Source: Roseibacillus sp.
GTDB lineage: Bacteria > Verrucomicrobiota > Verrucomicrobiia > Verrucomicrobiales > Akkermansiaceae
Reading direction: 5' to 3'
NCBI GenBank assembly: GCA_965242925.1
Contig: CBDEUM010000037.1
Location: forward strand, 32,001 to 96,000
Length of the DNA: 64,000 nt
The number at the start of each line of letters is the position of its first letter. The first letter of the stretch is position 1. Position numbers and translations under genes: made by a program. Shown here in pieces: positions 34,181-52,082 of the stretch. Under the pieces are notes generated by a model that saw nothing but the letters and a program-made list of their open reading frames with translations, did no database searches and was not told the origin of the DNA.

Positions 34181-34191
34181 ATTGTTACGGT

Positions 34192-34222
34192 TCCCCAAGG
34201 AAAGCCCTCCCCAAGGAAAGCC
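34192..34222 (+). repeat. 15-bp direct repeat just before the actA start
   Basis: TCCCCAAGGAAAGCC at 34192-34206 and 34208-34222. Confidence 0.9.
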
Positions 34223-34223
34223 A

Positions 34224-34940: not shown

Positions 34941-34943
34941 ACC

Positions 34944-37900
34944 ATGAGTAAACGGACCTGGCATCATCCGGAGATTCCCGCAGACGACGCGGGCATCGTG
35001 TCGTGGCGCAGTGTGGGTGAACTCGAGCGCAGTTCGGCCTTCCAAGCGCACCTGGAGCGTGAATTCCCGGAGGGCTCCGGCTACCTGAGCGAGGAAGACC
35101 GGCAGGCCACGCGGCGCAGCTTCCTCAAGCTCATGGGTGCGTCCTCGGCCCTGGGTGGGTTGACGCTGGTGTCGTGTCGACGGCCGGAATCCTATATCGT
35201 GCCCTACAAGAAGGCGCCGGAGTGGGTCATACCCGGAAAGCCACTCTACTATGCTTCCAGCCGTCCCCGGGCGGAGGGTTCCGTGCCCCTGGTAGTGACC
35301 ACCTTTGAGGGTCGACCCACCAAGCTGGCGCCCAATGGCGACCACAACGATGGGTGCGGCGCTGACGCCCTGACCCAGGCATCCGTTCTCAACCTTTACG
35401 ATCCCAAGCGCTCCCGTGACTTTCTGAAGGGTGGGAAGAAGGCTTCGCAGAAGGAATTTGAGGGCGTGTTTGCCTCCGTCGCGAGGGAGGGAGGCAAGCT
35501 TGCCGTCCTGGTGGGTGAAGACGACTGTCCGACCCGCAATCGCCTGAAGGGTGAGGTTGAGGCAGCATTTCCGGGTTCAAAGTTCTACAGCTACGAGGCC
35601 CTGCGGGGCGAGGCGCGCCGCAGGGTGCACGCCGAGGTGTTCGGAGACGGAACGGAGACCGTGGTCGACTTCTCGAAGGCGGATCGCATCCTTTCGCTGG
35701 ACTGCGACTTCCTCGGGATCGATCCGATGGGGAAGGCATCGGAGTTTTCCAGGAAACGGCAGGGAGGGGGAGAAGATTACCGGCAGGGTATCGATGCGGA
35801 GGCCATGAACCGGCTCTACGCGGTGGAGACGGCCTACAGCCTGACCGGCGGGATGGCCGATCATCGCCTGCGGGCCAGGCCGAGTCAGGTTGCGAGGATT
35901 GCGGCACAGCTTGCAGCGGAGCTTGGGGTAGCGGTGGATGGTTACGAGGCGGGCAGGATGTCTGCCGAAGAGAAGGCAGGCCTGTTAGGAGACGCGAAGA
36001 CCTTTGACGAGTGGATCAGGGGTTGCGTGGATGATCTCAGGGCGAGTGAGGGCAAGGCCGTGGTTCTGGCCGGAAGTCGTCACGGCGAGGAACTGCAGCG
36101 CATTGTCATCGCCATCAACAAAAAGATCGGGGCCTATGGGGGTCCGCTGGTGGTTTACCAAACGGGACGGGAGGGCTACGGCACGATTGAGGAGTTTGAA
36201 AAGGACATCGATTCCGACACCACCATCCTTCTCCTGGGATCAGCCAACCCGGTCTATGATCGTCCGGGTGGAAGATTCGCCGATCTGCTTAATCGGGCCA
36301 AACTGAGCATCCATCTGGGCTTGCGCACGGATGCCACCGCATTGGCCAGCGACTGGCATATTCCGGCCGCGCACTATCTTGAGACTTGGGGGGACACCCG
36401 CACCGCGAGCGGAATCTACTCGCTGGTGCAACCGATGATCCTGCCGCTCTACGGAGGACACTCGGAGCTCGAGATTCTCTCGCAGCTCCTTTCCTGGAAG
36501 GCGTTTGACTGGGCCAAGGTCGAGAGTGAGGACCCGGAGAAAAGGATCGCAGCTCCTGCGCTTATCGCGGGGGAGGGGTCGGGAGGGGAGCCCTCGCCGG
36601 CCCTGGCCGAAGTGCGCAGGACCTTCGCCCTGCCCGGGAATGCCAATGACGAGGGAGAGGTCGAATGGAAGGAGGCGCTCAGGGACGGCTACCTTCGCAG
36701 TAGTTCCTACCAGAGCATCGATGCCGAGAAGGCAGAGGACGCCGCGCCTGTGCTCAGTGCAGTCAAGTCGGACGGGATCGAGATCAATTTCCTCGCCGAT
36801 GCTTCAGTGTGGGACGGTCGCTATATCGACAACGGCTGGCTACAGGAGGCCCCGGATCCCATTTCAAAACTTTCCTGGGATAACGCGGCGCTCGTTTCGC
36901 CCAAGACAGCCAAGGCTCTCGGGGTTTACGATGCGGTCCAGGAACTGGAGCCTGAAAGCGAAATCCCGCTCCTGGGCAAGGTCAAGAATGCACCCAAACC
37001 GCTCATTGATGAGGGAAAGAATGCGCGGGCGCCCATGGCGCTTATCAAGACCGTGGCGGGACGGATGGAAATTCCGGTCCTGGTGGCTTTCGGTCATGCT
37101 GACGACTGCATCTCGATTGCGCTTGGCTATGGACAGGGAGCTTCCGATAAGCGTGACGGGGTGGACGTGGCCAGCGAGGATGATCCATACGCCCCCGTTG
37201 GGCTCGTGGGGATTAACACCGGGTTCAATGCCAACCAGTTGCGCGGGAATGCTTCTTTCAGTGCGGTGGCCATGGAGGTCACGAAGGTGAAGGAACGGTA
37301 TCACGTCGCCCTGGTGCAGGAGCATAACGCCATGAATGGCCGGGCATTGGCCCGCGAGGTTTCCACGAAGGATGTCGCACATCACGGACACAAGCTCTCC
37401 TTTGAAAAGCAGGTTTCCAAGGTGCGTGTGCAGGGGCCCGTTGATTCACACGCTCCCGAAAATATTTCACTCTATAAACGTCGTGGATCGACGACCTGGG
37501 AGAGTGACAGTGACAAGCAGGAGGATCTCATCAGTGACAAGATCCACCAGTGGGGCATGTCGATCGACCTCAACACGTGTATCGGGTGCAACGCGTGTCT
37601 GATCGCCTGTCAGGCGGAGAACAACATTCCGATCGTGGGCAAGGAACAGGTTGCGATGGGGCGCGAGATGCACTGGATCCGCATGGACCGCTACTTTGCA
37701 GCTCCCATGGCTGAAACGGACGAAAAGACCCACAAGAAAGTGTCCACCCCCGAATGGATACAGGAAAACCCTGAGATGATTCCCCAGCCGGTTGCCTGCA
37801 TGCAGTGCGAAAACGCGCCCTGCGAGACCGTCTGCCCCGTCAATGCCACCGTGCACACCGAGGAAGGCCTCAATGCAATGGCCTACAACCGTTGTATCGG

Positions 37901-38504
37901 CACCCGCTATTGCGCCAACAACTGCCCCTACAAGGCGCGGCGCTTTAACTATTTCGACTATAATAAACGCAACCCACTCATCGACCACAACCTCTACAAG
38001 GGGCCCTTCGGCGAGACGCAGGTGGGCAAGGCTCCTCATCTCCAGCGGAATCCCAACGTCTCGGTCCGTATGCGCGGGGTGATGGAAAAGTGCACCTACT
38101 GCGTGCAGCGCTTGGAAAGTGCCAAGATCAAGCAGAAGCAGATCGGGCGTCACAAGACGCTGCGGGCGGGAACCGAGTCCACCGCGGTATCGATCAGTGC
38201 GGAGGACCTGCGGATCAAGGCGGACTCAGTCAAGGTGGCGTGCCAGGAGGCGTGCGAAGCCAACGCCATCAGCTTCGGCAACCTCCTCGACAAGGAGGAC
38301 GCGCAAGTCTGGCGTTCCAAGTACAAGGGAGAGAAAAAGAACAAGGACGGGATAATTGAAGTCATCCACAACCCGCGCAACTACGATGTCCTGCAGTATA
38401 TCGGGACTGCTCCGCGCACCAGCTATCTCGCCCGCGTGAAGAACCCCAACCCGGCCATGCCCGATGCCGCCTACCGCGGCCTGGCCACGATCCACACTGC
38501 CTGA
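34944..38504 (+). CDS. actB: Alternative complex III subunit B (molybdopterin-oxidoreductase-like fold plus Fe-S domain)
   Basis: TRRSFLKLMG Tat motif, EGRPTK, CIGCNACLIAC, CMQCENAPCETVCP, CIGTRYCANNCP, EKCTYC. Confidence 0.93.
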   Translation: MSKRTWHHPEIPADDAGIVSWRSVGELERSSAFQAHLEREFPEGSGYLSEEDRQATRRSFLKLMGASSALGGLTLVSCRRPESYIVPYKKAPEWVIPGKPLYYASSRPRAEGSVPLVVTTFEGRPTKLAPNGDHNDGCGADALTQASVLNLYDPKRSRDFLKGGKKASQKEFEGVFASVAREGGKLAVLVGEDDCPTRNRLKGEVEAAFPGSKFYSYEALRGEARRRVHAEVFGDGTETVVDFSKADRILSLDCDFLGIDPMGKASEFSRKRQGGGEDYRQGIDAEAMNRLYAVETAYSLTGGMADHRLRARPSQVARIAAQLAAELGVAVDGYEAGRMSAEEKAGLLGDAKTFDEWIRGCVDDLRASEGKAVVLAGSRHGEELQRIVIAINKKIGAYGGPLVVYQTGREGYGTIEEFEKDIDSDTTILLLGSANPVYDRPGGRFADLLNRAKLSIHLGLRTDATALASDWHIPAAHYLETWGDTRTASGIYSLVQPMILPLYGGHSELEILSQLLSWKAFDWAKVESEDPEKRIAAPALIAGEGSGGEPSPALAEVRRTFALPGNANDEGEVEWKEALRDGYLRSSSYQSIDAEKAEDAAPVLSAVKSDGIEINFLADASVWDGRYIDNGWLQEAPDPISKLSWDNAALVSPKTAKALGVYDAVQELEPESEIPLLGKVKNAPKPLIDEGKNARAPMALIKTVAGRMEIPVLVAFGHADDCISIALGYGQGASDKRDGVDVASEDDPYAPVGLVGINTGFNANQLRGNASFSAVAMEVTKVKERYHVALVQEHNAMNGRALAREVSTKDVAHHGHKLSFEKQVSKVRVQGPVDSHAPENISLYKRRGSTTWESDSDKQEDLISDKIHQWGMSIDLNTCIGCNACLIACQAENNIPIVGKEQVAMGREMHWIRMDRYFAAPMAETDEKTHKKVSTPEWIQENPEMIPQPVACMQCENAPCETVCPVNATVHTEEGLNAMAYNRCIGTRYCANNCPYKARRFNYFDYNKRNPLIDHNLYKGPFGETQVGKAPHLQRNPNVSVRMRGVMEKCTYCVQRLESAKIKQKQIGRHKTLRAGTESTAVSISAEDLRIKADSVKVACQEACEANAISFGNLLDKEDAQVWRSKYKGEKKNKDGIIEVIHNPRNYDVLQYIGTAPRTSYLARVKNPNPAMPDAAYRGLATIHTA

Positions 38505-38523
38505 ACGAGGGCTCTGAAAACTC

Positions 38524-40017
38524 ATGGCAGACACCGCTACCAAGACTACGGGTGAGGCGCCCGCGCCCCGGGAGGTAAAACTTCCGGTGCTGGAGCGTGA
38601 GAAGCTCGTTCTCAACAAGCGCTCCTACCATTGGATCACGGAACGTGTGTGCGGTGTGGTCGAGAACAAGCAGCCCATGGTCTGGTGGGCACTCTTTATT
38701 CCCACCATCCTCATGGCCATCATCGGGGTGGGTGGCGGCCTGATCTACCTGGTCACCACCGGGGTGGGGGTGTGGGGTAACACCAACCGGGTGATGTGGG
38801 GCTGGCCCATCGTGAACTTCGTGTTCTGGATTGGAATCGGCCATGCCGGAACACTCATTTCCGCCATTCTCTTCCTCACCCGGCAGAACTGGCGGACGTC
38901 CATCAACCGCGCGGCGGAAGCGATGACGATCTTTGCCGTGATTTGTGCCGGTATTTTTCCGGCCTTCCACGTGGGAAGGGTCTGGATGGCCTGGTACCTC
39001 GCGCCCATTCCCAACGCCAACGCGGTGTGGCAGAATTTCAAGTCCCCACTCCTCTGGGATGTTTTCGCGGTCTCAACCTACTTCTCAATTTCGCTGGTGT
39101 TCTGGTTCCTCGGGATGGTGCCCGACCTGGCCACCATCCGGGACCGCTGTAAGCGGGGAGTGAAGAAGGCGCTCTACGGCATCTTCTCGCTGGGCTGGCG
39201 GGGCAGCAATCGCCACTGGAGCCACTATGAGATGGCCTACCTCATCCTGGCGGCTCTTTCTACCCCTCTCGTGCTTTCCGTGCACTCGGTGGTGAGTTTC
39301 GACTTTGCCACTTCGATAGTTCCCGGCTGGCATACCACTATCTTCCCGCCCTATTTCGTGGCGGGTGCCATTTTCGGCGGCTTCGCCATGGTGCTGACCA
39401 TCATGATCCCGGCCCGGTTTTTCTATGGCTTGGATGACATGATCACCATGAAGCACATCGACAACATGGCCAAGATCATCCTGCTGACGGGAACAATCGT
39501 TGGCTATGCCTACCTGATGGAGCTTTTCGTAGCCTTCTACTCGGGTGCCAAGTATGAGATGGCCGCTTTCACCTACCGCATTACCGGACCCTACTGGTGG
39601 GCTTACGTGGCCATGATGAGTTGCAACGTGCTATCTCCCCAACTCTTCTGGTTCAAGCGGTGTCGCGAAAACCTCTGGGTCGTGATGGGCGTCTGCATGG
39701 CAGTCAATGCCGGGATGTGGTTCGAGCGCTTTGTCATCATCGTCACGACTCTGGCCCGCGACTTCATGCCCGCCAACTGGAAGTACTACAATCCGAGCTG
39801 GGTGGACATTGGTCTCTTTCTTGGCACAATTGGGCTGTTCACGTCGCTCTTCCTGCTCTTCCTGCGCTTCCTGCCGTGTATCAATATCGCGGAGGTCAAG
39901 TGGGCCAAGCAAGAGAGTGACGTTCACTTTGACGACAAGAAGGCGCACCCGGATGAGGGCACGGTGGTGGAGGCCTCTTACCAACACGAACTTGATAACG
40001 GAACTGCCGAAGTCTGA
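38524..40017 (+). CDS. actC: Alternative complex III NrfD-like quinol-oxidising subunit
   Basis: [55 protein letters not shown]. Confidence 0.95.
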
Positions 40018-40574
40018 TGAGTACCTCCGTCAAACGTGTCTATTGCTACCTGGCCGAGTTTGAAAGCGCTTCCGCGCTCTACAAGGCTGCCCAGAAGGTG
40101 CGTGATGCCGGCTTCAGCAAGTGGGACTGTTACACTCCCTACCCGATGCACGGGCTCGATGCTGCCATGGGTCTGAAGCGTTCCATCCTGCCCTACTTTG
40201 TATTCTTCGGGGGGGTGATCGGCCTTCTCACCGCCTTCCTGCTGGCCTACGTCACGCAGGTGGGAATCTATCCCACGGTAGTGCAGGGTAAACCGGCCAA
40301 CATCTTCACTGTGCCCGCTTTCTTCCCCATCATGTTTGAGCTCACCGTGCTTTTTTCCGGATTTACGGCGCTCTTTGCCTGTCTGGGTCTCTGCCAATTG
40401 CCGCGCTGGAATCACCCGCTCTTTGCGAGTCGGCAGGCGCACCGGATAACTGATGACGGGTTCTTCATCGCTATCGAGGCTCGGGATCCCAAGTTTTCGA
40501 AGGAGGGAACGAAGGGGTTCCTTGGTGGGATCGGGGGCGACAACATCGAACTGGTCGAAGAGGATGGAAAGTAA
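40017..40574 (+). CDS. actD: Alternative complex III subunit D (DUF3341)
   Basis: YTPYPMHGLD, two TM helices, PIMFELTVLF. Confidence 0.92.
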   Translation: MSTSVKRVYCYLAEFESASALYKAAQKVRDAGFSKWDCYTPYPMHGLDAAMGLKRSILPYFVFFGGVIGLLTAFLLAYVTQVGIYPTVVQGKPANIFTVPAFFPIMFELTVLFSGFTALFACLGLCQLPRWNHPLFASRQAHRITDDGFFIAIEARDPKFSKEGTKGFLGGIGGDNIELVEEDGK

Positions 40575-40583
40575 GGTGATATC

Positions 40584-41282
40584 ATGAAGTACTTTTTCCT
40601 CGCCTTTATCGGACTGATTGTCCTTACGGTCGGAGTATTCGGCTTGCGTGGGGCCAAGACGACCAGAACCCCCATTGAAATTTTCCCCGACATGGACCGC
40701 ATGGATTTCGTGAAGGGACAGAAGGGCAGTGATTTCTTCCATGATGGCATGGGCTCCCGCCTCCCGGTGACGGGGACGGTGCCGCACTCGAGCGATGACG
40801 GAATTTTTCCGGTCGAGTTTGGAGCAGGCCGTAATGGGCACTACTATACCGGGGCTATCAATGATTACTTCGCCGCTGGCCTGCCCCTTGAAGAACTCGG
40901 TCTCATCGGGGACGACGGAGCCTCCGAAATGCAGGCTCTCCTCCGTCGTGGGCAGGGTCGGTTCTCGATTTTCTGTGCGATTTGCCATGGAGATGCCGGA
41001 GATGGCACTGGACTGATCAGCAACTACATGGCGGCCAAAATCGCTAACCTGCACGAACCACGTTTTGGCAGCGACCAGTATCCTGAGGGCAAACTTTATC
41101 ACGTGATCACCCACGGTCAGGGCCTCATGAGCGGTTATGGCGCCAACATCCCGGTGCGTGATCGTTGGGCCATCGTAGCCTACGTGCGCGCCCTGCAGGA
41201 CTCAAAGAAGGCCCCGGACGGTCCGGTGCCGGCCCCCGCCCCGGGGGAGAATGAAAACCCGCCAGGAGGCTCCGCTAACTGA
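40584..41282 (+). CDS. actE: Alternative complex III monoheme cytochrome c
   Basis: FPDMD, CAICHG, MSGY, DRWAIVAYVRALQ. Confidence 0.9.
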   Translation: MKYFFLAFIGLIVLTVGVFGLRGAKTTRTPIEIFPDMDRMDFVKGQKGSDFFHDGMGSRLPVTGTVPHSSDDGIFPVEFGAGRNGHYYTGAINDYFAAGLPLEELGLIGDDGASEMQALLRRGQGRFSIFCAICHGDAGDGTGLISNYMAAKIANLHEPRFGSDQYPEGKLYHVITHGQGLMSGYGANIPVRDRWAIVAYVRALQDSKKAPDGPVPAPAPGENENPPGGSAN

Positions 41283-41290
41283 TTTCCGGC

Positions 41291-42628
41291 ATGGCACATC
41301 ATCTAGTCACATCGGCAGATATCCCCGTCGACGGCGAAAAGCTGGCAGTCGACAAGGTGAGCCGCATCAGGCTGATCTGCCTGATGGTGGCGATTGCCGG
41401 GGCGTTGGTGAGCGTGCCGGCCCTTCTTGGTGTCTTCGGCCGTGGGGTGCAGGGATCCTACAGCTTCTCGTGGCTCTACGGCTTCTTCTTCTTCACCACT
41501 CTGGCTCTGGGTGGCTGCTTCTGGACCCTCCTCCACAATATCACCAACTCCGGGTGGGGTGTTTCGGTGCGCCGTGTGATGGAAAACGTGGGCTACGTCT
41601 TTCCCTGGATGTTGATCCCGGTTCTGCCGATTCTCCTATTGCCGCAGGTTCAGGAGTTTCTCTACGAGTGGATGGAGAAGCACCGGATGGCCAAGGACGT
41701 CGCCGGCTCAGTCAAGGAGGGCCTGCACCACGGCGAAACTGCCGACCACCTTCTCTCCAGCAAGTACTGGTATCTAAACCTCAACTTCTGGTACTTCCGT
41801 GTCATCGCCTATTTTGCCGTCCTCGGGTTCGTTATCCACTTCCTGCGCAAGCTCTCGATTGACCAGGATAATGATCCCGAACCGGGAACGAGCCGTCTCC
41901 TGCGGGCGCGCTTTCATTCCTGTTGGGGCGTGCCTGTATTTGCCGTGGTGCTGACTTTCCTGGCCATTGATCTTGTCAAGGGGCTCGACTACAAGTGGTT
42001 TTCCACCATGTGGGGTGTCTACGTCTTTGCTGGCAGCGCCCTCAATGCGATGGCGGTGATCATCCTGGTCACTATCGCGCTGCGCGGGATGGGCTATTTC
42101 AGGAACGTGGTTGGTCCTGAGCATGACCACCTGATGGGGAAACTGGCTTTTGCCTTCACGGTTTTCTGGGCCTACATCTCCTTTGACCAGTATTTCCTCT
42201 ACTGGTACGCCAACATTACCGAGGAGACCCGTTACTTCGTCCTGCGCAATACCGGGGGCTGGAACTATGTCAGTATCATCCTGGTGTTTGGACACTTTGC
42301 GGCACCCTTCCTTCTCCTCATCCGTCAGGATCTCAAGCGCAGGAACGGTTACATGATTGTGGTGGCGGGCTACCTGCTCTTCATGCACATGATCGATGTT
42401 TATCACATGATCATTCCTGAGCGTGGTCCTTCCGTGACCAAGATCCTTAATCCGGAGAATCCCGAGAAGTGGCAGCTCTGGCTCAATGGCTCCTTTATGG
42501 GGGACGTCATCGCCTTTGTCACAATCGGGTGCTTTTTCCTCTTCGTTCTCCTGCGTAATATCGGATCGGCCGCGCTTTACCCACACCGGGATCCGCGCAT
42601 TCTTGAGTCAGCCAATGTGCACAACTGA
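41291..42628 (+). CDS. actF: Alternative complex III subunit F
   Basis: About ten TM helices, SGWGVSVRR, WFSTMWG, FWAYISFDQYFLYWYANITEET. Confidence 0.9.
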   Translation: MAHHLVTSADIPVDGEKLAVDKVSRIRLICLMVAIAGALVSVPALLGVFGRGVQGSYSFSWLYGFFFFTTLALGGCFWTLLHNITNSGWGVSVRRVMENVGYVFPWMLIPVLPILLLPQVQEFLYEWMEKHRMAKDVAGSVKEGLHHGETADHLLSSKYWYLNLNFWYFRVIAYFAVLGFVIHFLRKLSIDQDNDPEPGTSRLLRARFHSCWGVPVFAVVLTFLAIDLVKGLDYKWFSTMWGVYVFAGSALNAMAVIILVTIALRGMGYFRNVVGPEHDHLMGKLAFAFTVFWAYISFDQYFLYWYANITEETRYFVLRNTGGWNYVSIILVFGHFAAPFLLLIRQDLKRRNGYMIVVAGYLLFMHMIDVYHMIIPERGPSVTKILNPENPEKWQLWLNGSFMGDVIAFVTIGCFFLFVLLRNIGSAALYPHRDPRILESANVHN

Positions 42629-43419
42629 TGGATCCGGCGAACGACAATCCTCTAAAGCGGTTTTCCAACTTCTGGTTGGGTCTGGTTCTTTTTGCGGCCT
42701 TTGGTCTGGCCAGTCTTGTCCTCGGAATTGGATTCAAGAGACCAATTGAAAACAGTTTCGACAAGATCAACGAGGAACGCCGGGTCAAGATCAAGCGGGA
42801 GGCTGACAAGGCCCATGCCGGCACATTGGAAGCAGCGCAGGGAGGCTTCTCCAAGGTTGGTGCCCGGTTTCTTGAGACAGCGCCAGCGGCGGTGGAAAAA
42901 CCCGAGTTTGTTTTGCCCGGTTCGGCTACTCAGAAAGCGAAGGCTGCAGGGGGTTTAGGGGTGGTTGTTCCGAAGGGTTTTCCAGTAGTGGCGGCCGATG
43001 CCGCGGTAGAGCAGGCCGTGATGGAAAAAGGGAAGTTGATCTATGTCGTGTGCTCAGCCTGCCACGGACCCGAGGGGGAGGGGATGTATCATATCAACAA
43101 GACCGGGCCTCCGTTGGCAGGATCCGAGTGGGTGACGGGTCCGGTAGCAAACCTCATAGCAATTCAGTTTCGTGGCATGAACGGGACAATCGAGGTAAAG
43201 GGTGAAAAGTATACCCCGGTGGCCCCGATGGCTCCGCTGCCCCTGGATAACGAGTCGATCGCCTCCGTGTTGACCTATGTCCGGAACAGCTTCGGGAACA
43301 AGGCCTCTCCGGTAACGCCTGAGCAGGTTGAAGCGATGCGGGGGGAATTGGGAAAACCAATGCTGAGTCCGGCGGACCTCATTCCCCCGGATGCAGGACC
43401 GGGGCCAAAGCCCAACTAA
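42628..43419 (+). CDS. Membrane-anchored monoheme cytochrome c
   Basis: N-terminal TM helix; CSACHG, PPLAGSEWV, PMAP, VLTYVRNSFGN. Confidence 0.88.
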   Translation: MDPANDNPLKRFSNFWLGLVLFAAFGLASLVLGIGFKRPIENSFDKINEERRVKIKREADKAHAGTLEAAQGGFSKVGARFLETAPAAVEKPEFVLPGSATQKAKAAGGLGVVVPKGFPVVAADAAVEQAVMEKGKLIYVVCSACHGPEGEGMYHINKTGPPLAGSEWVTGPVANLIAIQFRGMNGTIEVKGEKYTPVAPMAPLPLDNESIASVLTYVRNSFGNKASPVTPEQVEAMRGELGKPMLSPADLIPPDAGPGPKPN

Positions 43420-43437
43420 CTTAACGGATGTTTTTTC

Positions 43438-44934
43438 ATGGCCTCTGATAGTAATAGCGAGACGACGAATCCTGAGGATCTGGAGTTGTGTGCGCGGATT
43501 GACCGCTCGCTGCGGCAGCCCGTCATGTTCTTCTTTGCCAGTGGGGCGGTATGGTTGGCGGTGGCGCTCATCCTTGGCTTCATTTCCTCCTACCAGTCAC
43601 ATGACACCGGGTTCCTTGCGGAATCCGGAATTTTCAATTACGGAAGGGTTTATCCAGCCCACGTGAATGTTCTCGTTTATGGGTGGGGATGCCAGGCGGC
43701 CTTCGGGCTCATCGTCTGGCTCATGGCACGGCTTTCGCGTAAGGAGTGCAGTTCGGTTGGAATAATCCTGACGGCGGGACACGTTTGGAATTTCGGGGTC
43801 CTGGTCGGGATGCTGGGTATTTTGGGAGGTTACGGATCCGGTAAACCCTGGATGGAATTCCCCGTCGCGATCTGGCCGCTCCTTCTGGTGAGCTACTTCT
43901 TTATAACAGTGTGGTCCTTTATCCAGTTCCGTTGCAGTGAAGGAGGTAAGACCTATGTGGCTCAGTGGTATCTGGTGGCCAGTCTCTTCTGGTTTCCGTG
44001 GGTCTATCTGACCGCGCATCTTTTTGTCTTTGCTTTCAACGGTCATCCGGTGATGGCAGCCGGGGTCAATGCCTGGTTTAAATATGCCCTCATCTTTCTC
44101 TTCTTCACTCCGGTCGCACTGGGCACGGCGTATTACCTTGCGCCCAAGATCACGGGCCGCCCGATATATAGCTATTCCCTGGCTCTCTTCGGTTTCTGGG
44201 CCCTGGCGGTAATCGGCCCCTGGGCCGGCATGCAGAAGTTGGCAGGCGGACCGCTTCCACAGTTTATGCCATACGTCGGAGCTGCGGCTACGGTCCTCAT
44301 TCTCATCCCGGCCCTTGCGGTAGGGGTTAACATCCTGATGACCGTGCGTGGGCATGAATCGGAGGTGGCGGCCAGTCCTTCCCTGCGCTTTACCATCGCC
44401 GGGATCGTGGCCTTTGTTGTGCTCGGCCTGATGGGGATGGGACTGAACACGCCCGGGGTGCTCAAGATGACGCAGTTTACTCTTACCGGCTACGGGTTTG
44501 AGATCCTGGCAGTTTACGGGTTCTTCAGCATGTGTGCCTTCGGGGGCATTTATTTTATCGTGCCGCGGATCACCCGTCGCGAGTGGCTCTCGCGACGTTT
44601 TATTGCCTGGCACTTCTGGCTCACCACCTACGGTATTGGCACGGTGGTAGTCTGCTCGATCATGGGGGGATTCTTCCAGGGGGCCGCTCAAGAGGCCTAT
44701 AACCACGCCTGGCACGAGGTTGCCACCCTGAACTATGCCTATACCGTGGGGACCACCGTGGCGTGGAGCTTGATTATTCTCGGCAGTCTTTTCTTCCTTC
44801 TGCATCTCCTTCTGATGTGGGCCCGACTCGGTCGGCGTAGCCAGCATCCCACCCTCCTCAAGGGCAGTCATCACGGGGGATCTCCCCACGGTCCAGACGG
44901 CGATCTCGACGAACTCCAAACCTCGGAAGCCTGA
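43438..44934 (+). CDS. cbb3-type oxidase subunit I (CcoN)-like membrane protein lacking the active-site histidines
   Basis: CcoN landmarks YGRVYPAH, YVAQWY, PKITGRPIYSYSL, WAG, HFWL are present; WYGH, GPHH and GHVH read WFKY, GMQK and GFEI. Confidence 0.85.
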   Translation: MASDSNSETTNPEDLELCARIDRSLRQPVMFFFASGAVWLAVALILGFISSYQSHDTGFLAESGIFNYGRVYPAHVNVLVYGWGCQAAFGLIVWLMARLSRKECSSVGIILTAGHVWNFGVLVGMLGILGGYGSGKPWMEFPVAIWPLLLVSYFFITVWSFIQFRCSEGGKTYVAQWYLVASLFWFPWVYLTAHLFVFAFNGHPVMAAGVNAWFKYALIFLFFTPVALGTAYYLAPKITGRPIYSYSLALFGFWALAVIGPWAGMQKLAGGPLPQFMPYVGAAATVLILIPALAVGVNILMTVRGHESEVAASPSLRFTIAGIVAFVVLGLMGMGLNTPGVLKMTQFTLTGYGFEILAVYGFFSMCAFGGIYFIVPRITRREWLSRRFIAWHFWLTTYGIGTVVVCSIMGGFFQGAAQEAYNHAWHEVATLNYAYTVGTTVAWSLIILGSLFFLLHLLLMWARLGRRSQHPTLLKGSHHGGSPHGPDGDLDELQTSEA

Positions 44935-44939
44935 TCCTG

Positions 44940-45671
44940 ATGACCTTCAAAGCATTCATATCGGCGTTGGCAGCAAGCTTCGGTGTCCCGTGGTTGCTCA
45001 TCATCGTGGTGCCCTTCGGCAAGATGCGGAACCTTGACGCCGTCCATTTCGAAATGGCGGTTGATGGCAAGGACGAGGTCTACGTCCCGCGTCGGTCGGG
45101 ACGGATTACCACTGGCTCTGCCCTCTACGGGGCCAACGGGTGCTACGTATGCCATAGCCAGCTTATCCGGGCGGGCTATGCGGGCTCGGAATTGGGGCGT
45201 CCTGACTGGGCCGGATTCCGGGTCAAGGATGAGAACGGAGTGAGTATTAACACAGCCCGCGAAACCACGCCTTATGACTATGTGGGAGAACCTTTTGCCC
45301 ACATTGGCATCATGCGGATTGGCCCTGATCTGACCAATGTGGCCGGTCGGATTCAGGGCTACCTGGAAGATCCGCTTACCAAGGCGGAATCACCTGAGAA
45401 CTGGCTTTATCTTCATCTATATAACTCCACCCTCAAGACGAGGACTCTTAATAACACGTCGGGATGCCCTCGTCAGACCCACCTTTTTGACGAGCGGGTG
45501 ACATACGGAGAGGGGAGCCCCGAGGCAGTGCCTGGGGTTACCAGGAATGGAGTGGAAGTATTGCCGACCTCGGAGGCCAAGGCTCTCGTAAGTTATCTGC
45601 TTTCTCTCAAAAAAGATGACCCGGTACCCTATTCGATTAATTACAGCCGGGAGAGGAAGAAGGCCGAGTAA
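44940..45671 (+). CDS. cbb3-type oxidase subunit II (CcoO)-like monoheme cytochrome
   Basis: TM anchor, GCYVCHSQLIR, RIGPDLTNV, WLYLHLYN, EAKALVSYLLSL. Confidence 0.85.
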   Translation: MTFKAFISALAASFGVPWLLIIVVPFGKMRNLDAVHFEMAVDGKDEVYVPRRSGRITTGSALYGANGCYVCHSQLIRAGYAGSELGRPDWAGFRVKDENGVSINTARETTPYDYVGEPFAHIGIMRIGPDLTNVAGRIQGYLEDPLTKAESPENWLYLHLYNSTLKTRTLNNTSGCPRQTHLFDERVTYGEGSPEAVPGVTRNGVEVLPTSEAKALVSYLLSLKKDDPVPYSINYSRERKKAE

Positions 45672-45691
45672 CGGACCCAACTAATGCAGTA

Positions 45692-46459
45692 ATGGCTCAT
45701 TCCAAGCAACCAGCTGATTCCAAGCGACCAGACCTTGAGGAAACCACCAACGTGGTGGAGGCCCATGCGGCCCTCCTGAAAACGGGCACGGCCCAGGCTC
45801 GCGAAAAACAAATTGCCGAAACCGGCATGGAACCGGTCTCGCTCTGGGTGTTTCTTGCCAGCGCAGTCGTCCTGCTGGTGGGCGGGGGAGTGCTTGGAGC
45901 AGGGGGAAAACTTTTCGATTACAACCCCCATCCCCAGAACTATACCCGTCCGGAATTTATCAGCGATGCAGACACTGGTCCGACGATTGGTCCCATCCTG
46001 GAAGCACTCACAAAGCGCGGAAAGAACATCTATGCCAAGTGCAGTGGTTGCCACGGGTCGACAGGGAGCGGTGATGGCAATCAGTTCCCGCCCCTTGCAG
46101 GGTCCGACTGGGTGACTGGTAATACCGAGCGTCTTTCGCAGATTATCCTCAACGGACTGAGCGGACCCATTGATGTGGACGGTAAGACCTACAACGGCAA
46201 TATGCCGGCACAGTCTCCGTTGACGGCCGCGGAACTTGCCGCCGTCATGACCTTCGTTCGTAACGAGTTCAACGACGTAGGCGACCTTGTCTCCATCGAG
46301 CAGGCGGCCAATGCGATCAAGATTTACGAGGCCCGGCCCCGGGGGCAAATCACTGTCAAGGAATTGAATTCCAACCACGACAAGATGCTTGAGGGCGAAT
46401 CGATCGATCCTGCCACTACCGTGGACTTTGAAACGCTCAAACCTGCAGCGGCTGAATAA
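45692..46459 (+). CDS. Membrane-anchored monoheme cytochrome c
   Basis: TM helix; CSGCHG, FPPLAGSDWV, YNGNMPAQ. Confidence 0.88.
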   Translation: MAHSKQPADSKRPDLEETTNVVEAHAALLKTGTAQAREKQIAETGMEPVSLWVFLASAVVLLVGGGVLGAGGKLFDYNPHPQNYTRPEFISDADTGPTIGPILEALTKRGKNIYAKCSGCHGSTGSGDGNQFPPLAGSDWVTGNTERLSQIILNGLSGPIDVDGKTYNGNMPAQSPLTAAELAAVMTFVRNEFNDVGDLVSIEQAANAIKIYEARPRGQITVKELNSNHDKMLEGESIDPATTVDFETLKPAAAE

Positions 46460-46477
46460 CGAACCCTAACTTCAAGG

Positions 46478-48355
46478 ATGATGAGCGCAGAAGCGGCAAC
46501 AGATCACGGGCACGATCACCATCACGATCTCCCGTTCTACAAAAAATATATTTGGTCCACTGATCATAAGGTGATTGGGATCCAGTATGGGATAACGGCC
46601 CTGTTGTTCCTTGCCTTCGGCTTCTTTCTCATGATGGTGATGCGCTGGAGCATTGCCTATCCCGAAGAACCCCTCCCGGGCTATCTCAGCTGGGTATTCA
46701 GCGATGAGTGGAAGGCTCGCTGGTTGCAGGACGGGCGGGTCACCGGCGATACCTATAACATGTTCGGTGCCATGCATGGCACCATCATGGTGTTCCTCGG
46801 TATCGTGCCCCTGGGCTTCGCGGCGTTCGGAAATTTTGTCACGCCGCTTCAGATCGGAACGGTGGACATGGCCTTCCCACGCCTCAACATGGTCAGTTAC
46901 TGGTGCTATCTCGCCGGGGGCTTGATCATGTGCGCGAGTTTCTTCATGGAGTCCGGGGCCGCTAAGTCAGGATGGACCAACTACTCACCTCTGGCCAACT
47001 TCGCCGACGGACAGATTGTGAACCAGTTTCTGGCCGGACAGACCCAGTGGCTCCTGGGGATGGTTTTTCTCATCAGCTCATCATTGTTAGGGGCGGTCAA
47101 CTTCCTTACAACCATCATCAACCTGCGAACCAAGGGGATGACCTGGATGCGGATGCCATTCTTCTGCTGGGCCATGCTGGTGACCGGTTTCCTTCTCCTT
47201 CTGGCTTTCCCGCCACTGGAGGTAGCTGCCCTGATGCAGTTAATGGATCGTACGGTAGGATCCAGCTTTTACATGCCCAGCGGTCTCTACACCTCCACCG
47301 CCGGAGTGATCGAGGCTTCCGGAGGAGGCAGCCCGCTCCTGTATCAGCACCTCTTCTGGTTCCTGGGACATCCGGAGGTTTACGTCCTGCTCCTGCCCGC
47401 TATCGCCTGTGTGGCCGAGATCATTCCGGTCAACACACGAAGGCCGCTGTGGGGCTACAGGCCCATGGTCTGGTCGATCGTGATCCTTGGCTTTCTGAGT
47501 TTCGTCGTCTGGGCCCACCATATGTATCTCACCGGTATGGGACCGGTGATTTCCACCTGGTTCCAGACCACCACCGTGATCATCTCGGTGCCATCAGTCA
47601 TCCTCCTGACCTCTATGATCGTATCCCTGTGGGGTGGTTCCATCCGTTTCAACGTTCCCATGCTCTGGGCGATATCCTTCCTGCCCATGTTCGGGATTGG
47701 CGGCCTGACCGGACTGCCGCTGGCCTTCAATCTAGTGGATCTCCACCTGCACGATACCTACTACGTGATCGGCCACTTCCACTACGTCGTGGCGCCCGGG
47801 GTTCTCTTCGGACTCTTCGCCGGCATCTATCACTGGTATCCCAAGATCACGGGGCGACATATGAACACTTTCCTGGGGCATCTTCATTTCTGGCCCTCCC
47901 TCGTGTTCATGAATGTTCTCTTCTTCCCCATGCTTATCCAGGGGATGGCCGGATTCCACCGCCGTTGGTATAACGGAGGAGACGCCTACCTGTCCAAGGC
48001 CGCCGACAGCGAAAATATCTTCGGCAATACCGTGGCGGAGTGGATCCATCTCAACCCTCTCATGACTTTTGGAGCCCTCATGCTGGCCCTGGCCCAGATC
48101 CCCTTCATCATCAACTTCTGGACCAGCCTCTTCATGGGCGAGAAGATTAAGAACGATAATCCCTACGACGCAACGACCCTGGAGTGGGCCACGCCCACGC
48201 CGCCGCCTCACGGCAACTTTACCTTCGACGTGGGAGCCTATCGCGGGCCTTACGAATACAGCCGTGAGGACCATGAGGGTGACTTCTATCCCCAGTGGGA
48301 GGAACCGAGGAGGGACAAGCCCGCCAAGGAACCCGAACCGGAGCCTACTCAGTAA
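46478..48355 (+). CDS. coxA: A1-type heme-copper oxidase subunit I
   Basis: STDHKVIG, MHGTIM, DMAFPRLN, FWFLGHPEVY, WAHHM, HDTYYVIGHFH; all six His ligands present. Confidence 0.95.
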   Translation: MMSAEAATDHGHDHHHDLPFYKKYIWSTDHKVIGIQYGITALLFLAFGFFLMMVMRWSIAYPEEPLPGYLSWVFSDEWKARWLQDGRVTGDTYNMFGAMHGTIMVFLGIVPLGFAAFGNFVTPLQIGTVDMAFPRLNMVSYWCYLAGGLIMCASFFMESGAAKSGWTNYSPLANFADGQIVNQFLAGQTQWLLGMVFLISSSLLGAVNFLTTIINLRTKGMTWMRMPFFCWAMLVTGFLLLLAFPPLEVAALMQLMDRTVGSSFYMPSGLYTSTAGVIEASGGGSPLLYQHLFWFLGHPEVYVLLLPAIACVAEIIPVNTRRPLWGYRPMVWSIVILGFLSFVVWAHHMYLTGMGPVISTWFQTTTVIISVPSVILLTSMIVSLWGGSIRFNVPMLWAISFLPMFGIGGLTGLPLAFNLVDLHLHDTYYVIGHFHYVVAPGVLFGLFAGIYHWYPKITGRHMNTFLGHLHFWPSLVFMNVLFFPMLIQGMAGFHRRWYNGGDAYLSKAADSENIFGNTVAEWIHLNPLMTFGALMLALAQIPFIINFWTSLFMGEKIKNDNPYDATTLEWATPTPPPHGNFTFDVGAYRGPYEYSREDHEGDFYPQWEEPRRDKPAKEPEPEPTQ

Positions 48356-48376
48356 CACTCCTCTAATCCCTGAATT

Positions 48377-50341
48377 ATGGAGATTCCCCATACTGTTACC
48401 GCCCGGAAGGATACCGGCCTTTTTAACGCGAAGGTCGGCATCTGGCTCTTTCTTGCTTCCGAAGTGATGCTGTTCGGTGGGCTGTTCTCGGCTTACGTTT
48501 TCCTGAGGATCTACGCCGACTACCCGTGGCCGGAGCGCGCCCTGCCCATTGTTCCGGGGCTCATAAACACCTTCGTGCTTATCGGTTCGTCCGTCACGGT
48601 GGTCTTTGCCTGGGCATCGCTCAAGATGCGACAGTGGCGGCGCTTCCAGATTTTCATGGCGATCACCATTGGCTGTGCGGCCGTGTTCATGGTTCTCAAA
48701 ACCATTGAGTATAAGGCCAAATGGGGGCACCAGGCCGTGCGCATGGATGACTTCACAATCATCGAAGGGCACGCCCACTACGCCACCATTCTGAGTGACG
48801 GAAAAGTCGAACACTTCCACACAAAGAAGGAAGCAAAGAAGGCGGGAGAAAAGGATGCGGAGGTCGCAAACAAGGCCGCTGCCGCGGCGAAAGGAAAGGA
48901 CGAGGAATCTGGTGGGTCGGGGAAGGCGAATCTCTGGAAGGCCGGGAAGCCCTTCAAGGCCAATGCGCTTCTTTTCAAGCCGGAGACCATCGATTTCTCG
49001 ATGGTGCGGGCACACGAGTCATGGGTCAACGCCATGCTTGAGCAGACCGGGAAGAGAAATTCCAGACTGATCACTGCCGAGGACATCTTCCTCTACGGGC
49101 ACATCGAGGATTACTCGGGAACAAAGAGTGACCCGAGGTCGAGCAAGGAACGCGCCCAGAAGGAGGCCGAGATCGTAAAGGACTACGCCACGGCGGAGGA
49201 AAAGAGGGATCACAAGTTCGGAGAGAACTCCCTCTTCATCCCGGCGGGCACTCCCCTGAGCTATGCTCTTCTTGAGAAATCCCGCCAGGTCTTCGTCGCA
49301 GGCCGTGCCCACAACGCGGAAACCCGGACGGCCATCCTTCGGGAAAAGTGGAAGAGCGTCAGAAGGGATCTGCCGGACGAAAAATACTGGGATCAGGCTC
49401 CCGAGGCCAGGATTGACTCAGCCACCGACCTTGCCGAGCAAGTCGATGAGGAGGGCAATTGCACTGCCGGGAGCAAGGTGGTGTCGCTGGTATCCACCCT
49501 CTCCTTCAGGATGGATCCTCCCCAGCCGATCATCATCAAACGGAGCTGGATCAAGCGCCCCGTCAAGGGACAGGATGGGAGGGCTGAACTCAGGGACGAC
49601 ACATCCCTCAACGCGGGAGACGGAGAGGGTGGGTCCACCGGACTCCTTGAGAGCCCCCTTGCTCTCTCCGTGGATGCCATCGATTTCCGCTGGATGGCCC
49701 AGAAGGCCGAGGAAGCCGGGAATGTTCCGATGGAAGTGATTGAGCAGAGCTGGATCTTCTCGAAGGCCAACAAGAACGGATCGACCTACAAGAAAATCTG
49801 GAAGGTTCACAAGAAGCGCATCGCTGAGCTTGAGCAGCGCCTGATCGACAAATACGGCAAGGACGAGGAAGGGAAACCCAGACGCGTGGCCACCGAGACC
49901 GATCGCTACCGGGTGACCTGGCAGGACTTTATGCACTATGCCCGGGCCGAGCACGACAGGCTCATGCCGGGGGACTCTGGGTTTGACGACCTCCGACCCA
50001 AGTTCTGGAACGGGTTTGCAGGACCGAACCACAAGAACGAGGAAATCCACAAGCTTCACGCCTTCCCCGAATTGGAGATTCCCCATCATAAAGTCTCCCT
50101 GCAGTCGATGTTCACTCCCAAGTGGAATACCTACTACGCGATCTATTTTACCCTGACCGGCCTGCACGGTCTGCACGTGGTGGGTGGAGCCCTTGTCCTG
50201 GGATACTACCTCTTCTTCAGCAAGGGACTCTACCGCAGCGACCCGGAGTGGCTTGCCAACCGGGTGGAGATAGGTGGTCTCTTCTGGCACTTTGTCGATC
50301 TCGTCTGGATCTTCCTCTTCCCGATCCTCTACCTCATGTAA
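48377..50341 (+). CDS. coxC: Heme-copper oxidase subunit III with a large soluble insertion
   Basis: WLFLASEVMLF, NTFVLIGSS, then after ~460 aa YFTLTGLHGLHV and FWHFVDLVWIFLFP. Confidence 0.9.
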   Translation: MEIPHTVTARKDTGLFNAKVGIWLFLASEVMLFGGLFSAYVFLRIYADYPWPERALPIVPGLINTFVLIGSSVTVVFAWASLKMRQWRRFQIFMAITIGCAAVFMVLKTIEYKAKWGHQAVRMDDFTIIEGHAHYATILSDGKVEHFHTKKEAKKAGEKDAEVANKAAAAAKGKDEESGGSGKANLWKAGKPFKANALLFKPETIDFSMVRAHESWVNAMLEQTGKRNSRLITAEDIFLYGHIEDYSGTKSDPRSSKERAQKEAEIVKDYATAEEKRDHKFGENSLFIPAGTPLSYALLEKSRQVFVAGRAHNAETRTAILREKWKSVRRDLPDEKYWDQAPEARIDSATDLAEQVDEEGNCTAGSKVVSLVSTLSFRMDPPQPIIIKRSWIKRPVKGQDGRAELRDDTSLNAGDGEGGSTGLLESPLALSVDAIDFRWMAQKAEEAGNVPMEVIEQSWIFSKANKNGSTYKKIWKVHKKRIAELEQRLIDKYGKDEEGKPRRVATETDRYRVTWQDFMHYARAEHDRLMPGDSGFDDLRPKFWNGFAGPNHKNEEIHKLHAFPELEIPHHKVSLQSMFTPKWNTYYAIYFTLTGLHGLHVVGGALVLGYYLFFSKGLYRSDPEWLANRVEIGGLFWHFVDLVWIFLFPILYLM

Positions 50342-50356
50342 TCATTCTCACCGGCC

Positions 50357-50734
50357 ATGGCTGACACACCCGAAGAAATCAAGAAGGCACAGAAGAAGTA
50401 CCTCCTCATTGGGCTCATCCTCTTTGTCTTCACCGTGGTCACGGTGGCGGTCGCGACCGTGCCGTGGCTTGATTTTGGTGAGCACGGCTTTGACGCCCAG
50501 GACGCCACCATCGGCCTGATCATTGCCACCATCAAGGCCGGCCTGGTGGGCGCAATCTTCATGCACCTCAGTCACGAGAAGAAGACGATCTACGTTCTGA
50601 TCGTAATTGGTATTCTGATGGGGATTTCCCTCATGGGTCTGACTGGCTGGGCCTTTGAGGACCCCATCGAGTACGGGAACAGTGTGGAAGGGGACGGCTT
50701 CTTTAACCCGGAGGTAAAGGCAGAACAGCATTAG
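50357..50734 (+). CDS. coxD: Cytochrome c oxidase subunit IV family protein
   Basis: Three TM helices, IATIKAGLVGAIFMHL. Confidence 0.85.
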   Translation: MADTPEEIKKAQKKYLLIGLILFVFTVVTVAVATVPWLDFGEHGFDAQDATIGLIIATIKAGLVGAIFMHLSHEKKTIYVLIVIGILMGISLMGLTGWAFEDPIEYGNSVEGDGFFNPEVKAEQH

Positions 50735-50743
50735 GGATACGAT

Positions 50744-50947: not shown

Positions 50948-50968
50948 CCAAGCAACCGCGAACAGACC

Positions 50969-51163: not shown

Positions 51164-51209
51164 GACCAACCTGGTTCGTCCCCTCTCTTACTCTTTTCTC
51201 TGACTAGTT

Positions 51210-52082
51210 ATGCATTTCCTCGCTGACACTCTTGTCGAACACCTGGGTATTCCTGAGAACTACGCCGAGCACGGAGGCAGTGTGGATCACCTGATCGACG
51301 TGGTGCACTGGTTCATGCTCGTGCTCTTCGTGGGTTGGACTGGGTTTTTTCTGGTTGCCTGCTGGAAGTTCTGGCAGCGCCGTCATCCCAAGGCCTCCTA
51401 TCGTGGTGTGCAGAATCATGTGACGACCCATCTTGAGATCGGGGTGGCTATTTTTGAGGCGGTTCTCCTTCTTGGGTTCGCCTTTCCTCTCTGGGCGGAG
51501 CGGACGGACCGTTTCGAGGACATCCAGGCGCAGGATCCCGTGCGAGTGCGCGCCATCGGTTACCAGTTTGGCTGGAATTACCATTATCCGGGTATGGACG
51601 GAAAATTCGGGCGGATCGATCGTCACCTCGTGGAGAAGGCCGGGGATCCGTGTATCGACCCGGAAGATCCCAATGGCTGGGATGACTTTGTCTCTCCCAT
51701 CCTGAGACTTCCCGTGGCTGAACCGGCTATTCTGCAGGTGTCCTCCACGGATGTGATTCATGGCTATGCCATCGTGCCGATGCGGATTCAGCAGGACGCC
51801 ATTCCGGGGACGGACATCCCCATGTGGTTCCGTCCCCTCAAGGAACTCGAAACCAGTGTGGTCTGTGCCCAGCTCTGCGGGGAGGGCCATGGTGACATGG
51901 TGGGAGTGATGCAGGTGGTCAGCAGGGGGGCATACACTTCCTGGATGGAGGAGCAGAGCACCGCGGCCTACGGCCGGAACTCCGAGGAGGCCGGGACTGG
52001 TGGTAAGGTGGAAGAAGAGGACGAGGGTGAACCGGCTGGCGAATCCGAACCAGCTGATGAGCCGAAAGCTGCTGCCGAGTAA
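51210..52082 (+). CDS. coxB: Cytochrome c oxidase subunit II (CuA)
   Basis: Two TM helices, GYQFGW, DVIH, DAIPG, CAQLCGEGHGDM; acidic tail and no fused cytochrome c. Confidence 0.92.
   Translation: MHFLADTLVEHLGIPENYAEHGGSVDHLIDVVHWFMLVLFVGWTGFFLVACWKFWQRRHPKASYRGVQNHVTTHLEIGVAIFEAVLLLGFAFPLWAERTDRFEDIQAQDPVRVRAIGYQFGWNYHYPGMDGKFGRIDRHLVEKAGDPCIDPEDPNGWDDFVSPILRLPVAEPAILQVSSTDVIHGYAIVPMRIQQDAIPGTDIPMWFRPLKELETSVVCAQLCGEGHGDMVGVMQVVSRGAYTSWMEEQSTAAYGRNSEEAGTGGKVEEEDEGEPAGESEPADEPKAAAE

Follow-up and report, generated by a model that had tools for sequence, protein, structure and literature searches.

CcoN (FixN), subunit I of the cbb3-type (C-type) haem-copper oxidases (HCOs), is a twelve-helix membrane protein known from several solved structures (3MK7/5DJQ, 6XKW, 8SMR, 9G6B and 9G83), and it is paired with a CcoO-type haem-c subunit encoded immediately downstream. 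Here we describe a homologue, psN, encoded on the plus strand at 43438..44934 of a 64,000-nucleotide stretch of Roseibacillus sp. DNA (assembly GCA_965242925.1, contig CBDEUM010000037.1, positions 32,001 to 96,000), hereafter the window. The 498-residue psN protein shares with CcoN a clear sequence homology, the fold, a putative CcoO-type partner encoded directly downstream (a 243-residue CcoO-like protein that we call Olike) and a series of structural residues (W39, R98, W117, W213, Y232, K237, Y246, N298, Y372 and H392). Unlike CcoN, it lacks five of the six ligand histidines, the cross-linking tyrosine and a further histidine (Q346 in psN), it has invariant residues specific to its clade and a conserved C-terminal tail rich in His and Arg, and its gene sits between those of alternative complex III (ACIII) and those of an aa3-type oxidase. 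On balance, and with some reserve, we favour the reading that psN serves, without catalysing, as the membrane core of a cytochrome-c module that lies between ACIII and the aa3 oxidase.

Genes for ACIII adjoin those of a "cbb3-type" oxidase in verrucomicrobial methanotrophs, and the accessible text of two reports confines the pairing of ACIII with a C-type enzyme to these methanotrophs and the Opitutaceae (PMC8498564, PMC6688271). The intact ACIII-linked C-type subunits that we recovered from Verrucomicrobiota resemble psN in operon position and in their I-D-x-S and P-T-L-[LF] motifs, and they form its sister group; unlike psN, they retain all six histidines and the tyrosine (6/6), score 210-258 bits against TIGR00780 and have a partner with a distal methionine. 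In Flavobacterium johnsoniae, as here, the genes for ACIII and for an A-type oxidase lie together, and the two enzymes form a supercomplex that works as one menaquinol:O2 path (Sun et al. 2018, as cited in PMC8498564), with no CcoN-like or CcoO-like subunit mentioned in the available portions of the sources (PMC8498564, PMC8552683). The window differs in encoding three extra membrane-anchored monohaem cytochromes and psN between the two gene sets, and in a CoxII without a fused haem-c domain.

Subunits kept after the loss of a cofactor site have precedents in the CuA-less subunit II of bo3 and gNOR and in the haem-less NorC-like domain of qNOR, according to the accessible part of a 2024 survey (PMC11214002). 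In those cases the loss affects a secondary subunit, whereas in the psN family it affects the catalytic subunit itself, with five ligands gone in psN and all six in some relatives. The same part of the survey gives the active-site histidines as completely conserved across HCO families save for one replacement in gNOR, the first family found so changed. Neither a CcoN family without its ligands nor a Cys-bearing CcoO turned up in our search of the openly accessible literature, supplements excluded.

The psN protein and its lost ligands

psN is a real member of the haem-copper subunit I fold and a full-length CcoN homologue. It scores 155.3 bits against the superfamily-level model PF00115 (cut-off 34.8) and 108.4 bits against the ccoN equivalog TIGR00780 (cut-off 583.15), and a phmmer search against all PDB chains returned solely cbb3 subunit I chains, with E-values from 2.9e-27 (9g6b_A) to 1.8e-21 and 6xkw_n and 3mk7_A among them. 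An AF2 model of high confidence (pLDDT 92.7, pTM 0.93) has the twelve-helix subunit I fold: its seven top Foldseek matches are CcoN chains (TM 0.83-0.89, root-mean-square deviation 2.1-3.0 Å, or 2.1-2.6 Å over about 450 columns for the five best), followed by NorB.

Aligned by phmmer to the solved CcoN chains, psN keeps the helix-II histidine (H75) as its sole surviving ligand. WYGH of CcoN reads WFKY (Y216), GPHH reads GMQK (Q266, K267) and GHVH reads GFEI (F354, I356), so that five of the six histidines ligating haem and CuB are replaced. Gly260 occupies the column of the cross-linking tyrosine, which in the true and intact forms stands two positions ahead of the W of WAG; the YGMSTFEG stretch has no counterpart; and Gln346 replaces a further histidine that both true CcoN and the intact ACIII-linked proteins conserve. 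A first-pass annotation, made by motif alignment from the DNA and its translations, had already described a full-length CcoN homologue of 498 residues with the same five histidines replaced and had asked for an alignment with CcoN; the residues that it named proved exact, as did the losses of the tyrosine and of YGMSTFEG. We take the six invariant histidines of CcoN to bind haem b (two), haem b3 (one) and CuB (three), as assigned from the Pseudomonas stutzeri structure. psN lacks the ligands of CuB, of haem b3 and of one side of haem b, and this supports the prediction that it would be unable to reduce O2 or NO at a binuclear centre.

The loss is shared by the close relatives of psN. We aligned psN with the best 120 of 1004 proteins found at E <= 1e-10 by a word-index search (57-91% identity; 121 rows with psN). 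Those with a taxon name are all labelled Verrucomicrobiota or plain "bacterium", and those with a product name are called cbb3-type subunit I. Column 216 holds S, Y, G or A, with two histidines; column 266 is Gln in 117/121 rows, with one histidine; column 267 is Lys or Arg in 116/121, with two; and columns 354 (F/Y/L/M) and 356 (I/V/M) contain no histidine at all. H75 is present in 121/121, and in none of the 120 homologues is the full ligand set restored. Spread over the family in this way, the loss reflects neither chance nor a sequencing error. Conservation is otherwise high, with 132 of the 498 psN columns at least 98% conserved.

Gene order, selection and descent

psN belongs to a single unbroken respiratory cluster (34182-52082, plus strand) that leads from the ACIII genes through a cytochrome c, psN, Olike and another cytochrome c to the A-type oxidase. 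Its genes, with working names for the two cytochromes, are:

34182..34940, plus: ActA, pentahaem cytochrome c of ACIII (five CXXCH; PF14522 6.5e-12; QrcA-like 82 bits)
34944..38504, plus: ActB, iron-sulfur/molybdopterin-like ACIII subunit, 1186 residues (4Fe-4S dicluster domains, residues 870-1002)
38524..40017, plus: ActC, NrfD-type quinol-binding membrane subunit (PF03916 NrfD 1.8e-25)
40017..40574, plus: ActD (PF11821 ActD 194 bits, cut-off 25.7)
40584..41282, plus: ActE, monohaem cytochrome c (one CXXCH; PF13442 7.9e-12)
41291..42628, plus: ActF (phmmer against PDB: 6f0k_F "ActF" 1.7e-49; also 8k9e_F, 6lod_F and 6btm_F)
42628..43419, plus: cyc263, monohaem cytochrome c, 263 residues, N-terminal hydrophobic stretch (PF00034 2.9e-8)
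43438..44934, plus: psN, ligand-depleted CcoN homologue, 498 residues (PF00115, AF2 model and alignment to CcoN)
44940..45671, plus: Olike, CcoO-like monohaem cytochrome c, 243 residues (N-terminal transmembrane helix; CXXCH at residues 68-72)
45692..46459, plus: cyc255, monohaem cytochrome c, 255 residues, weakly CcoP-like (PF00034 1.2e-12)
46478..48355, plus: CoxI, A-family haem-copper oxidase subunit I (PF00115 435 bits; TIGR02891 CtaD 552 bits)
48377..50341, plus: CoxIII, 654 residues (PF00510 and the NCBIfam models of subunit III cover only residues 19-116 and 565-654)
50357..50734, plus: CoxIV-like small subunit (PF03626 COX4_pro 5.6e-10)
51210..52082, plus: CoxII, CuA motif, no cytochrome c domain (PF00116 9.3e-10; TIGR02866 CoxB 112 bits)

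All six core ACIII subunits, ActABCDEF, thus lie in order upstream of psN; ActF has no Pfam match. cyc263 has one CXXCH at residue 142, whose Cys and His are each conserved in 72/72 sequences, as is Met201 (72/72). cyc255 has one CXXCH at residue 117, a Met171 conserved in 76/76 and a hydrophobic stretch at about residues 49-72, and it scores 40 bits against TIGR00782 (ccoP), well under the cut-off of 180. CoxI shows the usual ligand motifs in translation, and CoxII a C-x3-C-x3-H-x2-M motif and no CXXCH. Between its COX3-like ends CoxIII carries a hydrophilic insertion of about 445 residues without a family match; the orthologous frames are shorter in two related loci (L103 and L104; 539 and 485 residues from stop to stop), and the insert is therefore of variable length. 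Directly after the cluster lies a gene for a RadC-like JAB domain protein (52202-52888, plus strand; PF04002 2.2e-36), unrelated to psN.

A scan of genome contigs gave 541 relatives confirmed by tblastn, of which we analyzed the loci of the best 80 (57-93% identity). The closest are Roseibacillus metagenome-assembled genomes, with a psN protein identity of 93%; wherever a taxon is given it is Verrucomicrobiota (Roseibacillus, Luteolibacter, Haloferula, Prosthecobacter, Akkermansiaceae), and one locus is labelled "uncultured bacterium". Isolates that carry the family include Luteolibacter algae KCTC 22040 (L086), Luteolibacter pohnpeiensis (P0113) and Roseibacillus ishigakijimensis (P0040). All 80 are colinear with the order ActABCDEF - cytochrome c - psN - CcoO-like - cytochrome c - CoxI-III-(IV)-II, which ActA opens. 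All 13 genes are present in 42 of the 80; in four only a detectable cyc263 is missing, and the others end at contig edges. ActB is in place in 57/80, the remainder being cut by contig ends, and cyc263 was detected in 71/80. The psN frame is intact in 80/80 loci and in the 541 confirmed genome stretches.

We estimated the ratio of non-synonymous to synonymous substitution rates (dN/dS) by pairwise NG86 comparison of psN with nine loci of the Roseibacillus group, four of which had a saturated synonymous rate (dS). Wherever dS was finite the ratio came to 0.05-0.12, including 0.124 against L011 (dS 0.28) and 0.086 against L014. Against L011, the psN value is close to those of ActF (0.107) and ActE (0.132) and below those of CoxIII (0.152) and CoxII (0.182). 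In distant loci psN, at about 58% identity, is more conserved than ActB, ActE, ActF, Olike and CoxIII. By these measures psN is a maintained gene under strong purifying selection rather than a decaying copy: a pseudoenzyme that has lost its catalytic residues and is held constant across species. The first-pass annotation had proposed just such a maintained pseudo-enzyme and suggested measuring dN/dS among orthologues. The lasting ligand loss, the colinear loci and the purifying selection agree with it, and what it had set against its own idea did not appear, no close orthologue having the histidine set and the gene not evolving neutrally. Marine metatranscriptome contigs from four runs in four studies span psN and both its junctions at identities of at least 95%; this is a weak sign of transcription, as it records presence in RNA libraries and not strand, level or operon structure, and DNA carry-over is possible.

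Beyond the close relatives, an exhaustive search of representative proteins yielded 1662 clusters with E <= 1e-3, of which 307 have E <= 1e-30. Among the best 150 the score is at least 187 bits; the solved CcoN chains score 80-99 bits with psN in the separate PDB search. Named members come from Opitutaceae, Pedosphaera, Limisphaerales and Verrucomicrobiales. When the full-length representatives of this top set were aligned with psN, only 4 of 134 kept all six histidines, one of them labelled Telmatocola, a planctomycete, and even the helix-II histidine was lost in most.

We then turned to a sample of 301 genomes of the phylum, counting as true CcoN any match above the TIGR00780 cut-off and as ACIII-adjacent any within 8 kb of ActD. 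True CcoN occurs in 60 of them (open frames of 716-919 residues; a CcoO domain is also present in 12/12 examined). Another 78 matches are CcoN-like and below the cut-off, and 68 of these adjoin ActD, 40 scoring 200-290 bits and 28 under 160 bits. Of 20 regions that we fetched, 17 read ActABCDEF - CcoN-like - CcoO-like - cytochrome c. The six ACIII-adjacent proteins at 210-258 bits retain every histidine and the tyrosine, the eleven under 160 bits keep 0-2 histidines, and the three away from ACIII are intact.

In a FastTree phylogeny of 166 sequences rooted on true CcoN, the 147 sequences with three or fewer histidines form one clade (SH-like support 0.988) without a member that has four or more. 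Its sister comprises the six intact ACIII-linked subunits (L116-L119, L121 and L122) and P0141, and, measured from the node that the two share, branches average 1.70 substitutions per site in the ligand-less group versus 0.61 in its sister. From this sister group we take the ligand-less family to descend from a working ACIII-linked C-type (cbb3-type) oxidase subunit I. Outside the main clade, P0175 (2/6 histidines left) stands beside an intact relative, P0183, as a second, independent loss.

Outside the phylum, the closest relatives with an annotation are "cbb3 subunit I" proteins of Paraburkholderia, Ralstonia and Cupriavidus (33-37% identity); the Paraburkholderia and Cupriavidus proteins, once translated, keep all six histidines (2/2). 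On a Paraburkholderia fungorum plasmid (L009; NZ_CP099624.1, 28272-35137), intact "cbb3 subunit I/II + cytochrome c" genes precede those for a P-type ATPase, a molybdopterin-dependent oxidoreductase and a further cytochrome c, neighbours that are uncommon for a C-type oxidase. Some genomes hold three kinds of CcoN together (G189 and G060): a true fused CcoNO, an intact CcoN-like protein away from ACIII (L120 in G060) and a ligand-less ACIII-adjacent one (L108, L110). In a sister genus within the family of the source organism (g2), 11 of 22 small genomes (1.7-3.3 Mb) have only weak ActD matches of 37-68 bits, seven of which lie inside frames of about 400 residues, and the genome scan found no CcoN-like gene in these 11; ACIII appears to be reduced or remodelled there. 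Finally, an N-terminal I-D-x-S-x-[RK] and a C-terminal P-T-L-[LF] motif are common to intact and ligand-less ACIII-linked CcoN-like proteins, and neither occurs in true CcoN. In psN they fall within residues 20-32 and 463-484, and the psN clade adds an invariant tail, R-L-G-R-R-S-x-H-P-T-L-L. ACIII or other partners may make contact with psN at these termini.

The CcoO-like partner

Olike is a distant homologue of CcoO. Its single-sequence scores fall under the cut-offs (PF02433 24.6 versus 29.6; TIGR00781 27.6 versus 200.65), whereas an hhalign comparison of its alignment with the CcoO domains of true fused CcoNO from the phylum gave a probability of 98.0% (E 2.2e-13, 158 columns). C68, C71 and H72 of the haem-binding motif are invariant in 33/33 rows, and both cysteines are found in 76/76. 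With HMMER, whether Olike was used alone or as a profile, FixO/CcoO models and PDB entries matched only around CXXCH, and we therefore settled the column of the distal methionine by MAFFT and hhalign. Both place Olike Cys176 at the invariant distal Met of the CcoO S-x-M-P motif, MAFFT in an alignment with 23 Met-bearing relatives. That column is Cys in 77/77 members of the psN clade (75 loci, the window and L103, of the same family) and Met in 23/23 others, which comprise true CcoO, a Paraburkholderia CcoO and the partners of both intact ACIII-linked subunits and ligand-less subunits of other lineages, including L104, from the same taxonomic order. C176-P177 is invariant in the 33-row alignment. 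We take the distal Met of CcoO to be an axial haem ligand; by alignment, Cys176 would then ligate the haem of Olike, and the Met-to-Cys change may be new. A conserved disulfide of C176 with psN, cyc263 or cyc255 was considered and set aside, as these have no conserved periplasmic Cys: the sole conserved cysteine of psN is C104 (78/81), in the helix II-III loop (presumably cytoplasmic by CcoN topology), and those of cyc263 and cyc255 lie only in CXXCH.

We modelled the psN-Olike complex from an alignment of each protein with two haems included, in three runs alongside three controls. The interface score ipSAE was 0.89 in all three runs, and 0.00 for the best control. The mark that we use for this score is reached by 116/157 solved complexes and by 2/215 mismatched pairs, a calibration that is only rough when custom alignments and a ligand are supplied. 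The runs share at least 92% of their contacts, with a partner pLDDT of at least 78. In the model the CXXCH region of Olike (63-71) touches psN residues 67-73, adjoining H75, and the loop around C176 (173-181) is part of the interface as well. The model supports binding between psN and Olike; since cbb3 structures have been solved, its score may reflect likeness to them only and not binding.

Possible roles of an emptied subunit I

The genome that carries psN, 89.9% complete, has two PF00115 genes only, CoxI and psN. We found in it no CcoN of TIGR00780 grade and no cytochrome bd, and the only O2 reductase found is of the aa3 type. Because its CoxII has CuA but no haem-c domain, electrons from ACIII must reach the aa3 oxidase through separate cytochromes c, and the genes for three membrane-anchored monohaem cytochromes c lie precisely between those for the two complexes. 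In the reading that we prefer, psN would be retained as the membrane core that holds the CcoO-like haem-c subunit and probably also the neighbouring membrane-anchored cytochromes c. The resulting module would join ACIII, which oxidizes menaquinol, and the A-type oxidase, most likely physically and perhaps electronically as well. psN, Olike and the cytochromes would then form one assembly with ACIII and aa3 in which electrons pass through the c haems of the module, psN itself being cofactor-free. Of the roles listed in the first-pass annotation (scaffold, single-haem or quinone binder, ion conduit, assembly factor), the scaffold is the one favoured by the genomic context and by the modelled psN-Olike complex.

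Several observations weigh against it. Our results include no contact with ACIII or aa3, the complex model having covered psN and Olike. We had expected interface residues to be the better conserved, an expectation not borne out in the close family, where 79 interface and 367 other core residues have mean column entropies of 0.98 versus 0.97 bits; in the wide ligand-less set the interface is ahead by only a small margin (2.16 versus 2.36, permutation p 0.03). As the interface is no more conserved than the rest, selection acts on the whole of psN, which pure docking would not need. The persistence of H75 throughout the close homologues, and in 19 of 23 sequences of the wider subclade, could mean a residual haem b; the old binuclear site holds a conserved polar set (Q266, K/R267, E/D355); and psN has clade-specific invariant residues, among them H27, H115, H456 and the tail R463-H470. 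On the side of the partner, the monomer model of Olike reaches a pLDDT of only 65 and found no Foldseek match at E <= 0.001 (its top three rows are CcoO chains, at a non-significant E of 0.55-1.4). The Cys/His haems of TsdA have potentials several hundred mV below +198 mV in the accessible text of one report (PMC9562282). By analogy, a Cys/His haem c in Olike would be expected to have a very low potential and to fit poorly as a simple relay to CuA, which makes Olike an odd carrier between ACIII and CuA.

Some of these features would find a place in a bolder proposal, which we consider unlikely though worth stating: that the emptied oxidase shell and a Cys-ligated CcoO haem make up a new functional unit between ACIII and aa3 in a Verrucomicrobiales clade. 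Such a unit might gate or sense the flow of electrons, either as a thiol/haem redox switch or as a site that reacts with sulfur or gas, and the Q266 - K/R267 - E/D355 set and the His/Arg-rich cytoplasmic tail might take part.

Among the alternatives proper, the one that survives best, itself improbable in our estimate, is that psN is a single-haem cytochrome b. H75 would hold a single haem b, which would be five-coordinate or have a sixth ligand not yet recognised, and this haem would take electrons from the Olike haem c directly above in a new redox role. H75 is indeed held while the five other ligand positions drift, the G69/R70 motif around it is kept, and in the complex model the haem-binding region of Olike lies right beside it. 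Yet the column of the second axial His of haem b holds I, V, M, T or L, with no conserved substitute; H75 has been lost four times within the subclade (P0137, P0124, P0126 and P0147) and is kept in just 23 of the 147 ligand-less sequences. We considered the clade-invariant H115 as a partner of H75 on one haem and rejected it on topology: judging from the helix limits of the model and the topology of CcoN, H115 would lie toward the cytoplasmic end of helix III and H75 near the periplasmic end of helix II.

Somewhat harder to sustain is a role centred on Olike, whose Cys-ligated or Cys-adjacent haem would lie off the main electron path and sense or catalyse (redox, gas or sulfur), with psN as its anchor. 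The strict division between Cys in the psN clade and Met elsewhere suits this idea, as does the lack of a conserved periplasmic Cys partner in psN, cyc263 and cyc255; the main current could run through the two ordinary His/Met cytochromes c on either side of the pair, and the Cys/His c haems known so far either have catalytic roles or very low potentials, as far as the accessible text of two reports goes (PMC9562282, PMC4423706). The ligation by Cys176 is, however, read from an alignment only, and ligand-less psN-type subunits with a Met-bearing partner are common elsewhere in the phylum, so that the cysteine does not explain why psN is retained.

We give still less credence to an ion or proton conduit, in which the emptied core would serve as a channel across the membrane, or as a conformational element of a pump, and supplement ACIII with charge translocation. 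Conservation spread over the whole membrane protein rather than focused on the interface would fit, as would the polar residues of the former binuclear site (E/D355 is kept in 121/121, beside the Q266 and K/R267 counts given above) and the buried polar residues that psN keeps in common with real CcoN (Y232, K237, Y246, N298, T302 and H392). The polar set is nevertheless not conserved in the wider ligand-less family, its Lys/Arg and Glu/Asp pair may be a mere salt bridge filling the lost metal site, and a pump would have no energy source without redox chemistry in psN. That psN is a functionless, decaying pseudogene or neutral relic, as its lost catalytic residues and branches 2.8 times longer than those of the intact sister group might suggest, is refuted by the selection data and has virtually no chance of being right, given intact frames throughout, low dN/dS, 132 near-invariant columns, a high-confidence model and loci that, at 57-93% identity, are not assembly duplicates of one strain.

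The gene ccoN is a widespread marker of high-affinity (microoxic) respiration in genomes and metagenomes, and psN-type genes are labelled "cbb3-type cytochrome c oxidase subunit I" by NCBI and JGI in hundreds of Verrucomicrobiota species. Judged by the missing ligands, the product of such a psN-type gene can hardly be an oxidase, here and in hundreds of species of the phylum. Rather than the high-affinity oxidase of its database label, psN is probably a component of a respiratory assembly with no catalytic role. A large family under selection that has lost five or six active-site histidines widens the known uses of this fold. With it comes a natural series, from an intact ACIII-linked oxidase, through a ligand-less protein with a Met-bearing partner, to a ligand-less protein with a Cys-bearing partner beside aa3, which is well suited to asking what a respiratory subunit does beyond catalysis.

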